From a virus (taxonomy: Duplodnaviria; Heunggongvirae; Uroviricota; Caudoviricetes), in IMG/VR virus record IMGVR_UViG_2548876947_000005: a stretch of 5,037 bases of DNA, one strand, 5' to 3'. Made by a program: the position numbers and the translations under genes. Each line of letters opens with the position of its first letter. Within the stretch, counting starts at the first letter, position 1. Shown here one piece after another: positions 1-5,037 of the stretch. Below the pieces are notes generated by a model, which saw nothing but the letters and a program-made list of their open reading frames with translations, made no database searches and had not been told where the DNA came from.

Positions 1-56
1 GAAAACCGATACTGGAAAAACTCTAAAGCGGTGGCCAGTTTTTGTTGACCACTACA
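1..56 (+). mobile_element. Partial IS3-family insertion sequence (IS911-like), right-end terminal inverted repeat; body of the element lies left of the window
   Basis: Minus-strand reading of 21-56 is TGTAGTGGTCAACAAAAACTGGCCACCGCTTTAGAG. It shares TGTAGTGG, an 11-nt gap and TGGCCACC with the plus-strand sequence at 4982-5017 (24/36 identical by hand alignment). 5'-TG terminus is typical of IS3 family. Similarity to the IS911 right IR is from memory, not a search. Confidence 0.5.
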
Positions 57-96
57 AATCGTGGTGATTGGTCGCTGATGCAGAATGTTTTATGTG

Positions 97-117
97 AAAC
101 CGCCTCCGGGCGGTTTT
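97..117 (+). terminator. Intrinsic (rho-independent) terminator hairpin, possibly bidirectional
   Basis: AAACCGCC (97-104) / tccg loop / GGCGGTTT (109-116): GC-rich stem followed by TTTTG on the plus strand and preceded by an A-tract. Sits 19 nt after an in-frame TGA (76-78) of a plus-strand reading frame entering from the IS junction. Confidence 0.5.
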
Positions 118-976
118 GTCGCTCATGGAACATAAACAATCACGTCAGTGGCCGCTTTTTTTGAGCGGGTCCTTTCCGGTGATCCGGAGCGTTACGGGGC
201 GGAAGGCGCGCAGTTTTTCTCTATTTATGGAAATTTTCCGGTTTAAGGCGTTTCCGTTCTTCTTCGCCGTAACTTTATGTTTTTATTTAAAACACCACCT
301 GAAAAGAAAGGAAATGGAAAGCATTATTTGGGACTGAAAATGGCATGATCGTTTCCTTTCTCCTGAACTTGGGTTACTGAACACTTACTCTACTGTAGGA
401 ACTCGAAATGCAGAGCTATAAGGTAATGATGACGATTAAACTGAGAGGTTCGATTAGAAAAGTATCTGAATACTAGTAAATTTCGCGAGCTGACATTCTG
501 TATTTTTCATAGGAAACAGAATATTGGAAAAGATGCGCTTGTGCTCTCTACTGAGGGTCGGGAAATTCGTATTTGTGCCAGTTATTGTGGAAAGTAAAAG
601 CTCTGGTCTGCTGCAAATGATTTGCGTTGCTGTGTCTATCTGAATGTCAGGAGCGCGTATAGCGTCCAGTAATATGATGTTTGTAGTAGGGGCTTCTGTG
701 ACGATAGGCTACGTTGCTCAAATGCTATCCCCACAATCTTGTGGGTAGCCGAGTAAGCAAGATACTGATAACAAGGCATTCTATGCATTTGGTGGTGTAA
801 CGAATACAACCGGCCAAGGGGATCTTGTTCTGCTGGCTTATGGTCAACGCCGAATCGGTGGTACTATCATTTCTGCGAGCATCTACCTTGAAGATAACAC
901 GTAAAAATGTTCGACGAAGCGCTAGCCAAGGAAAAATAATGGAAATGAGTAATATCGGGAGCTAAACTTGGTTGGT

Positions 977-1017
977 AATACAAGTTGCAGGTGTGTATTT
1001 ACATAGCAACTTGTATT
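977..1017. repeat. Perfect 12-bp inverted repeat with 17-nt spacer (RNA hairpin or palindromic protein-binding site)
   Basis: AATACAAGTTGC (977-988) and GCAACTTGTATT (1006-1017) are exact reverse complements; spacer AGGTGTGTATTTACATA. Lies 54 nt beyond the stop of the minus-strand 253-aa gene. No U-tract follows on the minus strand; only a weak T-rich tail on the plus strand. Confidence 0.6.
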
Positions 1018-1070
1018 TCACTAACGGATGTTTGACCGAAATTTAATCAGTTGAGGTTAAAAATTAGGTA

Positions 1071-1832
1071 TTATTTGTTTGACAAGTTTTGCCATGTTTG
1101 AATGAGGAAAACTGACATGCTTCCTGCAAGATTAACAGCTAAAAGAGCATGTCGATCAGCAGGTTTTATTGGTTTTTTCCCTATGCCATGAGCATCGCCA
1201 TATTTATTACGTAAATTGCCAAGGCCATTTACCACAGATGAGCAACCTTTAAGTATCTGCTTAAAAATCTGTTCTCCGTGCTGATCTGGAGCCAAATTAA
1301 GTGCTTTGGATGTTAGTTTATAAAGTTCACTCATGTCTAGATTTCTATCATAAGTAATACTTAAATCATCAAGAATGTGTTTACAAACCGTCTCAAGCAA
1401 TGTTCTAGATGCTGTAATAGCCCCTTCAGGATCGTTGTTTCTTCTGTCTAGAGCTTTTGCCCAAGCTTCATTCACGCCACACTCATCATAGCTTCTTAAT
1501 CCGTCAGTTATGTGAACATCCGAAGGCGTAGCATGATTCTCTTCGAAATAATCGAATAACGGTGTGAATTCAGTTGAGATGAAGTACTCGCGCTCTTTAT
1601 ATGTTGGGAACTTCTGCTGTATGAATCCCCAAAATTTTTTTAGGCTTCTGTTTTCTCTTACGAATGCAGGAAGCAACAGTTTTAATACAGAGTTTTGTAT
1701 AAAGTACGATCTAAGAGAAATATAATTTTCACTATTATCTCGAGGTCCTCCTCGAGCAACCTTAATTAATAAGTTCTCTAAATGTCTAGCTCGTTCCTGA
1801 TCCGACGAAAACTCATTGAGAAAATTATCCAT
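1071..1832 (-). CDS. HEPN-type Abi_C / AbiJ-like abortive-infection family protein, 253 aa (candidate RNase toxin or defence effector)
   Basis: Long minus-strand ORF with ATG at 1832-1830 and SD AAGGGG 7 nt upstream (plus coords 1840-1845), TAA stop at 1073-1071. C-terminal region has a helical HEPN-like layout with R-x6-H motif RNKYGDAHG (residues ~208-216, plus coords 1188-1211), consistent with the Rx4-6H HEPN signature and with the Abi_C family as I recall it. Strongly AT-rich, unlike the adjacent phage genes. Family assignment is by recall, not HMM. Confidence 0.6.
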   Translation of the reverse strand: MDNFLNEFSSDQERARHLENLLIKVARGGPRDNSENYISLRSYFIQNSVLKLLLPAFVRENRSLKKFWGFIQQKFPTYKEREYFISTEFTPLFDYFEENHATPSDVHITDGLRSYDECGVNEAWAKALDRRNNDPEGAITASRTLLETVCKHILDDLSITYDRNLDMSELYKLTSKALNLAPDQHGEQIFKQILKGCSSVVNGLGNLRNKYGDAHGIGKKPIKPADRHALLAVNLAGSMSVFLIQTWQNLSNK

Positions 1833-1876
1833 TTTAGGACCCCTTACACTTTTTCTATGGACTATACCAGTGATAG

Positions 1877-2062
1877 CTACCGCTTGCCTCCAGCATCTCT
1901 GACCCCGTAAGCATGGCCTTGATCGTAAGGTTTTGAACCCGTTTCAAGTACAATTCTTGGAGCTTTTGGGGGTAAAACATTGCCCTGAACCGAACGAAAG
2001 CCATCTCGATATCCTTGCTCAAATTCTTCTCTACGGGTTTGAACATCAACTGAATTAGTCAT
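1877..2062 (-). CDS. Small hypothetical protein, 61 aa, Gly/Arg/Asp-rich; likely first gene of a two-gene operon with the HEPN-like gene
   Basis: ATG at 2062-2060 with canonical SD AAGGAG (plus coords 2069-2074) and 6-nt spacer; TAG stop at 1879-1877, 44 nt before the next start. By hand count about 17 of 61 third codon positions are G/C while overall GC is near 47%, a coding-like bias in this frame. No recognisable family. Confidence 0.4.
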   Translation of the reverse strand: MTNSVDVQTRREEFEQGYRDGFRSVQGNVLPPKAPRIVLETGSKPYDQGHAYGVRDAGGKR

Positions 2063-2134
2063 TAATAACTCCTTACATATCCTGTGTATTGCATGATGTA
2101 TTGCAACGGTTCGTTTTGGAAGTAATTCTGAAGC

Positions 2135-2143
2135 ATATTATCA
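2135..2143 (-). promoter_or_regulatory. Candidate extended -10 promoter element (TGaTAATAT on minus strand) for the two-gene cassette
   Basis: Minus-strand sequence TGATAATAT about 70 nt upstream of the 61-aa ORF start. No good -35 (AGGATG at 17-nt spacing). Weak, sequence-only call. Confidence 0.2.
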
Positions 2144-2183
2144 CTAAAAATCATTCACATCCTTTCATATTTGACTCATGTAA

Positions 2184-2972
2184 CCCAAGCATGAGGTGAA
2201 TCCGCAGATGACTCTGCGTCGCCTGCCGGATGAAGATCCACAGAATCTGGCGGACCCGGCTTACCGCCGCCGTCGCATCATCCTGCAGAACATGCGAGAC
2301 GAAGAGCTGGCCATTGCTCAGGTCGAAGAGATGCAGGCCGTTTCTGCCGTGCTCAGGGGCAAATACACCATGACCGGTGAAGCCTTCGATCCGGTTGAGG
2401 TGGATATGGGCCGCAGTGCGGCGAACAACATCACACAGTCCGGCGGCACGGAGTGGAGCAAGCGTGACAAGTCCACGTATGACCCGACCGACGATATTGA
2501 AGCCTACGCGCTGAATGCCAGCGGTGTGGTGAATATCATCGTGTTTGATCCGAAAGGCTGGGCGCTGTTCCGTTCCTTCAAAGCTGTCAGGGAGAAGCTG
2601 GATACCCGTCGCGGCTCTAATTCCGAGCTGGAGACAGCGGTAAAAGACCTGGGTAAAGCGGTGTCCTATAAGGGGATGTATGGCGATGTGGCCATCGTCG
2701 TGTATTCCGGACAGTACGTGGAAAACGGCGTCAAAAAGAACTTCCTGCCGGACAACACGATGGTACTGGGGAACACTCAGGCACGCGGTCTGCGCACCTA
2801 TGGCTGCATTCAGGATGCGGACGCACAGCGCGAAGGCATTAACGCCTCTGCCCGCTACCCGAAAAACTGGGTGACCACCGGCGATCCGGCGCGTGAGTTC
2901 ACCATGATTCAGTCAGCACCGCTGATGCTGCTGGCTGACCCTGATGAGTTCGTGTCCGTACAACTGGCGTAA
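2184..2972 (+). pseudogene. E: Lambda-like major capsid protein E, 5'-truncated (C-terminal ~262 codons only)
   Basis: Translation PKHEVNPQMTLRRLPDEDPQNLADPAYRRRR...DPDEFVSVQLA matches the C-terminal two-thirds of phage lambda gpE nearly residue for residue. The frame opens right after an in-frame TAA at 2181-2183. The ~80 N-terminal codons are absent and no SD precedes GTG 2196 or ATG 2208. TAA stop at 2970-2972. Confidence 0.85.
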
Positions 2973-3013
2973 TCATGGCCCTTCGGGGCCATTGTTTCTC
3001 TGTGGAGGAGTCC

Positions 3014-3412
3014 ATGACGAAAGATGAACTGATTGCCCGTCTCCGCTCCCTGGGTGAACAACTGAACCGTGATGTCAGCCTGACGGGGACGAAAGAAGAA
3101 CTGGCGCTCCGTGTGGCAGAGCTGGAAGAGGAGCTTGATGACACGGATGACGCTGCGGGTCAGGATACCCCTCCCGGCCCGGAAAATGTGCTGACCGGGC
3201 ATGAAAATGAGGTGGTATCAGCGCAGCCGGACACCGTGATTCAGGATACGGCTGAACTGGCCACGGTCGTGGCACTGGTGACGCTGCATACTGATGCACT
3301 TCACGCCACGCGGGATGAACCTGTGGCATTTGTGCTGCCGGGAACGGCATTTCGTGTCTCTGCCGGTGTGGCAGCCGAAATGACAGAACGTGGCCTGGCC
3401 AGAATGCAATAA
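3014..3412 (+). CDS. FI: Lambda-like DNA-packaging / head assembly protein FI (132 aa)
   Basis: ATG at 3014 preceded by SD GGAGGAG (3004-3010). Translation MTKDELIARLRSLGEQLNRDVSLTGTKEELALRVAEL...ERGLARMQ is near-identical to lambda gpFI as recalled. The six-frame ORF 2975-3412 is the same frame extended upstream. Confidence 0.9.
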   Translation: MTKDELIARLRSLGEQLNRDVSLTGTKEELALRVAELEEELDDTDDAAGQDTPPGPENVLTGHENEVVSAQPDTVIQDTAELATVVALVTLHTDALHATRDEPVAFVLPGTAFRVSAGVAAEMTERGLARMQ

Positions 3413-3423
3413 CGGGAGGCGCT

Positions 3424-3777
3424 GTGGCTGATTTCGATAACCTGTTCGATGCTGCCATTGCCCGCGCCGATGAAACGATACGCGGGTACATGGGAACGTC
3501 AGCCACCATGACATCCGGTGAGCAGTCCGGCGCAGTAATACGTGGTGTTTTTGATGACCCTGAAAATATCAGCTATGCCGGACAGGGCGTACGTGTTGAA
3601 GGCTCCTGCCCGTCCCTGTTTGTCCGGACTGATGATGTGCGGCAGCTGCGGCGCGGCGACACGCTGACCATCGGTGAGGAAAACTTCTGGATAGACCGGA
3701 TTTCACCGGATGATGGCGGAAGCTGTCATCTCTGGCTTGGGCGTGGCGTGCCGCCTGCCGTTAACCGTCGTCGCTGA
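3424..3777 (+). CDS. FII: Lambda-like head completion / head-tail joining protein FII (117 aa)
   Basis: GTG start at 3424 with SD GGGAGG (3414-3419). Translation MADFDNLFDAAIARADETIRGYMGTSAT...GVPPAVNRRR matches lambda gpFII. Confidence 0.9.
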   Translation: MADFDNLFDAAIARADETIRGYMGTSATMTSGEQSGAVIRGVFDDPENISYAGQGVRVEGSCPSLFVRTDDVRQLRRGDTLTIGEENFWIDRISPDDGGSCHLWLGRGVPPAVNRRR

Positions 3778-3788
3778 AAGGAGGAGGT

Positions 3789-4322
3789 ATGGCCATAAAA
3801 GGTCTTGAGCAGGCCGTTGAAAACCTCAGCCGTATCAGCAAAACGGCAGTGCCCGGTGCCTCCGCAATGGCCATTAACCGCGTGGCCACAACGGCAATGA
3901 ATCAGTCGGCGTCACAGGTTGCCCGTGAGACAAAGGTGCGGCGAAAACTGGTAAAGGAAAGGGCCAGACTGAAAAAGGCCACGGTCAAAAATCCGCACGT
4001 AAAAATCATTGTTAACCGCGGTGATTTACCTGTCATCAAACTGGGGATACGGATCACCGGAAGTCGTCCCAACAGTACGCTACGGGCCGGTCAGCATCGT
4101 TATCAGCGGGCATTTATCCAGCGATTAAAAAATGGTCGCTGGCATGTCATGCAGCGTGTGGCCGGGAAAAACCGTTACCCCATTGATGTGGTGAAAATCC
4201 CGATGGCGGTGCCGCTGACCACGGCGTTTAAACAGAATATTGAACAGATACGGCGTGAACGTTTGCCGAAAGAACTGGAATACGCCCTGAAACAACAACT
4301 GAGGATTGCGATAAAGCGATGA
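3789..4322 (+). CDS. Z: Lambda-like tail completion protein Z (177 aa)
   Basis: ATG at 3789 with SD AAAGGAGGAGG immediately upstream. N- and C-terminal regions (MAIKGLEQAVENLSRISKTAVPG..., ...GRWHVMQRVAGKNRYPIDVVKIPMAVPLTTAFKQNIE...) match lambda gpZ; the central part looks divergent from my recollection of lambda. Confidence 0.85.
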   Translation: MAIKGLEQAVENLSRISKTAVPGASAMAINRVATTAMNQSASQVARETKVRRKLVKERARLKKATVKNPHVKIIVNRGDLPVIKLGIRITGSRPNSTLRAGQHRYQRAFIQRLKNGRWHVMQRVAGKNRYPIDVVKIPMAVPLTTAFKQNIEQIRRERLPKELEYALKQQLRIAIKR

Positions 4323-4714
4323 AACATACTGAACTCCGTGCAGCCGTACTGGATGCACTGGAGAAGCATGACACCGGGGCGACGCTTTTTGATGGTCGCC
4401 CCGCTGTTTTTGATGAGGCGGATTTTCCGGCAGTTGCCGTTTATCTCACCGGCGCTGAATACACGGGCGAAGAGCTGGACAGCGATACCTGGCAGGCGGA
4501 GCTGCATATTGAAGTTTTCCTGCCTGCTCAGGTGCCGGATTCAGAGCTGGATTCGTGGATGGAGTCCCGGATTTATCCGGTGATGAGCGATGTCCCGGCA
4601 CTGTCAGATTTGATCACCAGTATGGTGGCCAGTGGCTATGACTACCGGCGCGACGATGATGCGGGCCTGTGGAGTTCAGCCGATCTGACTTATGTCATTA
4701 CCTATGAAATGTGA
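4319..4714 (+). CDS. U: Lambda-like tail tube terminator protein U (131 aa)
   Basis: ATG at 4319 overlaps the Z stop (ATGA, translational coupling). Translation [54 protein letters not shown]...LTYVITYEM matches lambda gpU. Confidence 0.9.
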
Positions 4715-4721
4715 GGACGAT

Positions 4722-4997
4722 ATGCCTGTACCAAATCCAGTAATGCCGGTGAAAGGGGCCGGGACCACCCTGTGGGTTTATAAGGGGAACGGTGACCCTT
4801 ATGCGAACCCGCTTTCAGACGTTGACTGGTCGCGTCTGGCTAAAGTTAAAGACCTGACGCCCGGCGAACTGAGCGCTGAGTCCTATGACGACAGCTATCT
4901 CGATGATGAAGATGCGGACTGGACTGCGACCGGGCAGGGGCAGAAATCTGCCGGAGATACCAGCTTCACGCTGGCGTGGATTGTAGTGGCACAGTAA
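4722..4997 (+). pseudogene. V: Lambda-like major tail protein V, 3'-truncated by IS insertion (N-terminal ~86 codons plus 5 junction-derived codons)
   Basis: ATG at 4722 with SD GAGGA (4713-4717). Translation [50 protein letters not shown]...DTSFTLAW matches the N-terminus of lambda gpV (about 246 aa in lambda). Similarity stops at ~4981, where the IS-like repeat begins; the frame then reads IVVAQ and stops at TAA 4995-4997. Confidence 0.8.
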
Positions 4998-5037
4998 GTT
5001 TGGCCACCTGATTAAAGGTGATATTCTCACCTCAACA
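4982..5037 (+). mobile_element. Partial IS3-family insertion sequence (IS911-like), left-end terminal inverted repeat; element continues beyond the window end
   Basis: Plus strand from 4982 reads TGTAGTGGCACAGTAAGTTTGGCCACCTGATTAAAGGTGATATTCTCACC..., sharing TGTAGTGG-N11-TGGCCACC with the inverted sequence at 21-56. Begins with 5'-TG. Starts exactly where homology to lambda V ends. Confidence 0.5.

Follow-up and report, generated by a model that had tools for sequence, protein, structure and literature searches.

What occupies almost a kilobase of phage DNA that lies beside a HEPN-type abortive infection gene and carries no convincing reading frame of its own? The tract spans positions 118-1070 of the 5,037-nt stretch analyzed here as a whole (the window), and an earlier note had offered three answers: a structured non-coding RNA, regulatory DNA for the defense cassette, or the decayed remains of lost genes. 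We are highly confident that the tract is not one feature but a composite of satellite DNA, made up of a lambda-type cos site, a gpI-family pseudogene and spacers (Table 1). The cos site and the pseudogene, the latter recognized by protein homology, account for 640 of its 953 nt. The earlier note had overlooked the cos site, predicted here to be the main functional element, and had not recognized the whole region as the end of a phage satellite.

Table 1 Features of the window and gpI-like fragments in sister satellites.
Feature	Position	Strand	Basis or remark
IS3-family insertion sequence, right end	1-55	+	Ends ...TTGACCACTACA; cuts the lambda-I-like gene
Lambda gene-I-type 3' end and I-J hairpin	56-125	+	Last 7 codons and stop (76-78); hairpin stem 97-104/109-116
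Satellite cos site (predicted)	167-364	+	Column-by-column alignment with the lambda ends and the helper cos of RM14723
cosQ (presumed)	167-180	+	GGGTCCTTTCCGGT, identical over 14 nt to the lambda right end
cosN, predicted 12-nt cohesive end	197-208	+	GGGCGGAAGGCG
cosB repeats	R3 ~247-262, R2 ~304-318, R1 ~349-363	+	Lambda order and orientation
92-nt spacer	365-456		39% G+C; fold z positive
Pseudogene, gpI-family tail assembly protein	457-898	+	Residues ~48-197 of ~199; native stop 896-898
172-nt spacer, pseudogene stop to convergent Abi stop	899-1070		35.5% G+C
Abi_C (HEPN-type) abortive-infection family protein, AbiJ-like C-terminal half, cargo	1071-1832	-	Pfam PF14355, E 1.7e-23
61-aa ORF upstream of Abi	1877-2062	-	Gene call in all loci with this Abi
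Satellite right end and attR	2136-2195	+	Helper gene E resumes ~2178; matches the E:Phage_cap_E_80 site of PMC10111431
gpI-like fragment, strain 07-4299 (L003)			About 60 nt; other cargo
gpI-like fragment, T-HYM1 (L004)			C-terminal 66 codons, annotated pseudogene; other cargo
gpI-like fragment, 13P477T and AST215 (L010/L091)			N-terminal 80 codons; other cargo

Our frame analysis agrees that 118-1070 holds no credible gene. The sole ORF of at least 60 aa is the 73-aa TTG ORF at 116-337, and the longest stop-to-stop frames reach at most 84 aa. Such a gap had been called unusual, yet it is not anomalous in itself, because non-coding or decayed DNA of the same composition is expected to look this way. 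The description of the tract as AT-rich like the cassette is roughly right, its G+C content (41.9%) falling between that of the Abi gene (37.4%) and that of the helper late genes (56.3%). The TTG ORF passes through the cos site, and lambda has no gene at the equivalent place. What had been read as a terminator stem at its start (97-116) is instead the lambda I-J intergenic hairpin. A RefSeq 71-aa 'hypothetical protein' (WP_071780743.1) spans the satellite cos site in two sister loci (L010 4679-4894 and L091 3179-3394) and is probably a spurious gene call.

Judged from its sequence, the window contains the 3' terminus of a phage satellite, namely a helper-embedded PICI that belongs to the "11capE" or E:Phage_cap_E_80 type (Tommasini, Mageeney & Williams 2023, PMC10111431). 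It interrupts a prophage's lambda-like major capsid gene, E, at codon ~82; this is a helper late gene, which the satellite enters near codon 80 and in the orientation of E. At attL, as seen in locus L001, the helper E fragment terminates in ..GYVKPKH, and at the right junction in the window E resumes as ..PKHEVNPQMT... The window's right-hand part holds a lambda-like late operon: E without its first ~82 codons, FI, FII, Z, U and a truncated V. Positions 2136-2300 are common to satellites with other cargo at 93-94%. Upstream of the tract, strains RM14723 and VCSW7 carry genes for an integrase, an AlpA-type regulator, an Icd-like protein, DUF4222, a primase, SSB, an E-like major capsid protein, a D-like decoration protein and a 127-aa AlpA-like protein, with the N-terminal 82 codons of helper E on the far side of the integrase. 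Annotation and Pfam matches place the zones, which lie outside the window itself, in the order int/AlpA, Bro, primase/SSB and late (capsid homologue, cos) in L001, L002 and L011-L020. When positions 1-2200 were compared by megablast with 5,426 complete E. coli genomes, 4 of these contained the whole stretch, and the 165-316 segment recurs in 3748 of the 5426; strain NRG857c is itself among the cos matches.

This copy shares with Eco567.11capE the insertion point in helper E, the gene order, an E-like capsid gene of its own, a cos-like stretch at the equivalent place (258 bp in the type element) and a dynamic late zone, for which capture and loss of helper late genes have been proposed (PMC10111431). 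It differs in its Abi_C cargo, in an extra lambda-I gene upstream of cos that is IS-cut in the window, and in being flanked on both sides by IS3-family elements. The gpI-like remnant described below is not mentioned in PMC10111431.

At the left edge, positions 1-55 match the ends of annotated IS3-family transposase elements at 100% in thousands of E. coli records, and they are not contiguous with 56 onwards in any complete genome of the E. coli set. The right edge (4983-5037, TGTAGTGGCACAG...) is a second IS3-family end, whose terminal repeat TGTAGTGG matches the left IS. The left element interrupts the lambda-I-like gene, which is intact in RM14723 and lies there between the AlpA-like gene and cos; the right one interrupts gene V both here and in RM14723. 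Flanked in this way, the satellite copy and its helper may be, and probably are, immobilized. Positions 56-125 begin with the last 23 nt of the lambda-I-type gene; they match L001, whose 202-aa I gene is intact, at 100%, and many lambdoid prophages, at the 3' ends of their I genes, at 97%; the I-J hairpin has a fold z of -4.46. RM14723-type satellites have this second lambda-type I gene (202 aa) and an upstream tail-gene fragment inserted before cos (L001 11335-12023), and two unrelated gpI-family sequences thus flank their cos.

We aligned positions 140-400 with lambda, its right and left ends joined, and with the cos that lies upstream of the Nu1-like gene of the RM14723 helper. The first element, GGGTCCTTTCCGGT, which we take to be cosQ, lies some 17-30 nt before the nick site, as in lambda-type sites. 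The flanks of cosN are conserved (..GTTACG-GGGCGGAAGGCG-CGCAG.. here and ..GTTACG-GGGCGGCGACCT-CGCGG.. in lambda). The two overhangs share 7 of 12 bases and differ at the other 5; cosQ and R3 are identical. The stretch from R3 up to R2 is nearly identical to lambda. The R2 and R1 cores, AGAAAGGAAA and TTTCCTTTCT, form a perfect 10-nt inverted pair (305-314 and 352-361) with the order and spacing seen in lambda; the R2-R1 spacer is unrelated. A further difference lies downstream: in lambda the terminase genes Nu1 and A follow cos, and in this satellite a dead tail gene does. Among sister satellites, variation is concentrated at 180-203, and the cohesive end reads GGGCGGAAGGCG here, GGGCGTCAGGCG in VCSW7 and GGGCGGCGACCT in lambda and the RM14723 helper (L093).

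These similarities predict that 167-364 is a functional cos packaging site, with the differing overhang bases and the R2-R1 spacer as points against it. When a lambdoid helper prophage is induced, the helper terminase would bind R3, R2 and R1 of cosB and nick cosN to produce the 12-nt cohesive end, and cosQ would be used for termination; satellite DNA would thereby be packaged into particles made by the helper. EcCICFT073 is an E. coli cos-type PICI that likewise has lambda-like cosQ and cosN and is packaged by the helper terminase (PMC6739421). However, EcCICFT073 cos1 has no cosB R elements of the phage type and depends on Rpp-TerS instead (Fillol-Salom et al. 2019, PMC6739421), while the satellite studied here has phage-like R3, R2 and R1. 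Because it keeps these elements, the simplest expectation is that helper TerS would recognize the satellite cos directly.

The suggestion of decayed genes proved correct for 457-898, which makes up 46% of the tract. A first clue came from distant blastn of 317-1070, which matched "tail assembly protein" genes at 752-898, and the translated search that had been recommended for degraded homologues recovered a gpI-family remnant over the full segment. With the gpI-like protein of L024 as query, tblastn gave E 3e-42 (61% identity over 111 aa and 48% over 48 aa in a second frame), and with that of L005 it gave E 9e-38. Residues ~48-95 map to 457-600 in frame 1 and residues ~87-197 to 575-895 in frame 2. 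The stitched translation matched phrog_32 'tail assembly protein' at E 4.6e-36, covering profile positions 43-200 of 203; NCBIfam offered no usable model for a gpI-like protein. Homology to the gpI family (phrog_32 and PF06805 relatives) is clear, but the intact frame of about 195-205 codons is missing. The ~47 N-terminal codons and the start are absent, the frame shifts near 575-600, and in-frame stops occur at 641-643 (TGA) and 746-748 (TAG). With residues 1-47 gone, one frameshift and two stops, we classify the segment as a pseudogene. Compared with lambda gpI and the phrog_32 tail assembly proteins, this sequence is inactivated, and it lies in a satellite late zone, outside any K-I-J tail module. 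A palindrome reported at 724-749 falls within it; it is present but weak, with a stem of ~7 bp that stays below the repeat search at seed 8.

Intact gpI-like homologues occur in two settings. The first is the siphophage tail module, in which they lie between the C40 peptidase (K) and J; in the second they form the last backbone gene after TerL, followed by cargo, in fis-integrated PICIs. Intact genes matching phrog_32 stand ahead of the cargo hotspot in L005 (2554-3153), L024 (4859-5458) and L092 (3501-4115), the last of which also has portal and head-completion genes. L024 and L092, both fis-integrated PICIs, have a convergent Abi_C homologue among their cargo, giving the same layout as in the window; the L024 homologue is 55% identical to the Abi protein here, and the intact gpI-like gene lies downstream of it on the other strand. 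Different gpI-like pieces persist in sister capE satellites that have other cargo (Table 1), a patchwork that would be expected from the decay of a once-captured late gene. We propose that a gpI-family gene formerly occupied the satellite late zone between cos and the cargo hotspot, and that it has since lost its 5' end and gained the frameshift and two stops to become the present dead remnant. The post-cos zone holds real genes in some relatives. In L109, a metagenome-derived satellite of the capE type, cos is directly followed by a small terminase gene that is Nu1-like (3949-4500, minus strand), and this terS and a 91-aa gene stand between cos and an Abi allele of 57% identity. The Tai tail-assembly-inhibition systems (PMC11364771) were considered and set aside, as they belong to another hotspot and the text names neither gpI nor tail assembly protein.

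We then profiled the Abi gene and its surroundings. PADLOC matched it to AbiJ (E 2.4e-22) over the C-terminal part only, and it also matched phrog_23253. The 61-aa ORF upstream has no Pfam, PHROG or PADLOC match and did not turn up beside Abi homologues that have diverged; it may be a spurious call, or else encode a partner or antitoxin. Every locus that encodes the exact Abi protein is the same satellite. In ten loci (L011-L020), the 1,979 bp from inside cosN to the att core (204-2182) are 100% identical, between flanks that are 82-99% identical in the satellite backbone upstream of cos and 94-97% identical on the helper side. From this contrast we infer that the cos-to-att segment behaves as one recently spread module, which looks swapped between backbones. 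As a speculation, cargo might be exchanged when two satellite genomes join through their cohesive ends and Int then resolves the product at att x att. Such a route would give exactly the junctions seen at cosN and att. Defense hotspots have been described at PICI 3' ends and, in P4-like satellites, beside cos (PMC9122126, PMC11364771). Here, likewise, a putative defense gene, Abi_C, lies as cargo between cos and att at the 3' end of the satellite.

Does the tract always travel with the HEPN-like gene, as a check of synteny might reveal? It does not. Among Abi homologues drawn from one-genome-per-species contigs and metagenomes, those at 77-83% identity have neighborhoods without cos, gpI or tract similarity, and an 83%-identical homologue sits among ordinary chromosomal genes. 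The cos site and gpI remnant, for their part, occur without this Abi. Judged by these neighborhoods, Abi does not need the tract. Because sister satellites share cos and gpI fragments and an Abi homologue lives without them, we assign the tract to the packaging and "late" zone of the satellite and not to the HEPN cassette. For the same reasons, the reading as regulatory DNA for the cassette lacks support for the bulk of the tract; a role for the Abi gene, such as forming its 3' end, is conceivable only for the hairpin-bearing spacer 899-1070.

The origin of 264 nt, in the spacers 365-456 and 899-1070, is unassigned. The first has no homology beyond the identical block and holds no remnant of the other late-zone genes tried. 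Neither spacer contains remnants of Nu1/terS, of the 91-aa and 63-aa post-gpI genes or of the lipoprotein and hypothetical genes of sister PICIs. The palindrome reported at 977-1017 is real, with 12-nt arms (977-988 and 1006-1017) that are 100% complementary and 17 nt apart, and a second stem is formed by 921-930 and 969-978. By a rough estimate, about 0.002-0.005 such 12-bp inverted repeats are expected by chance in 953 nt. Fold z is -3.55 on the plus and -2.13 on the minus strand for 899-1070, and -3.5 to -4.7 on the plus strand for 921-1080, where the signal comes from the 12-bp hairpin and the neighboring stem. We do not call the hairpin an intrinsic terminator because it has no T-run. Searches by blastn, by pattern and in the flanks of Abi homologues found no diverged copy of 899-1070. 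The hairpin pattern occurred in one viral contig, in which a 253-aa Abi-sized ORF adjoins the hairpin and which looks like the same element. Since 204-2182 is identical in all 10 other loci, there is no variation by which to gauge how constrained the pseudogene is or whether the hairpin arms covary. Most likely, the hairpin would mark the 3' end of the Abi transcript or insulate it from read-through.

The spacer and its hairpin might instead act on the HEPN/Abi toxin as an RNA partner or a regulatory site, for example an antitoxin RNA or an operator, and would then belong to the cassette. This spacer is the sole part of the tract not common to other satellites, lies directly 3' of the Abi stop, and combines a non-random perfect inverted repeat with significant folding. 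However, the tandem short-repeat array that accompanies the toxin in type III (ToxI-like) toxin-antitoxin systems is absent: TRF (minimum score 30) found no tandem repeats in 118-1070, nor was there a direct-repeat family. No similarity exists 3' of the Abi homologues at 55-83% identity, and a plain 3'-end or insulator hairpin between convergent units explains the spacer equally well. A role as partner or regulatory site of Abi is very unlikely. It would likewise be a considerable surprise if a small RNA from 899-1070, perhaps with read-through RNA from the dead gpI gene, controlled or neutralized the AbiJ-like HEPN protein; if true, the cassette would be an RNA-protein toxin-antitoxin pair.

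Returning to the tract as a whole, the absence of an intact ORF and the folding at 921-1080 are what could favor a structured non-coding RNA encoded by all or a large part of it. Against this, an Rfam covariance-model search of the whole window, run with permissive filters on both strands, returned 0 matches at E<=1. In sliding 120-nt windows, fold z stays between about -2.2 and +2 in every window from 121 to 1000 and is near 0 on both strands across 200-920, with strong signals in two places only (1-200, from the I-J hairpin, and 921-1080). A tRNA/tmRNA scan found none, and promoter and terminator consensus scans gave fewer matches than in shuffles, so such sites are not in excess. Nothing is conserved beside Abi homologues, conserved copies are limited to identical ones, and blastn of 366-2195 against phages and plasmids returned only gpI-like and Abi-like coding matches. 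With most of the tract explained by the cos site and the pseudogene, the RNA reading is highly improbable. The idea that the gpI-like sequence still yields a functional protein through recoding (stop read-through and frameshifting) or as a shorter active fragment is almost certainly wrong, as the 61% identity across the C-terminal 111 codons and the kept native stop are outweighed by the two in-frame stops, the frameshift, the loss of the N-terminal codons and any start, and the different, non-overlapping fragments in sister satellites, a pattern produced by neutral decay.

The composite reading makes the tract ordinary, because it consists of a known type of satellite cos, a broken captured tail gene of the gpI family and short spacer DNA. 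We regard this as a clean negative: a gene-free, hairpin-bearing kilobase beside a HEPN defense gene turns out to be a packaging site and gene debris, and it is not worth pursuing as a new RNA. The analysis provides a base-level map of the predicted cos in a helper-embedded PICI and one concrete case of "capture then loss", the fate that has been proposed for helper late genes in such satellites. The cos-to-att block, identical across differing backbones, illustrates how defense cargo may be swapped between satellites.
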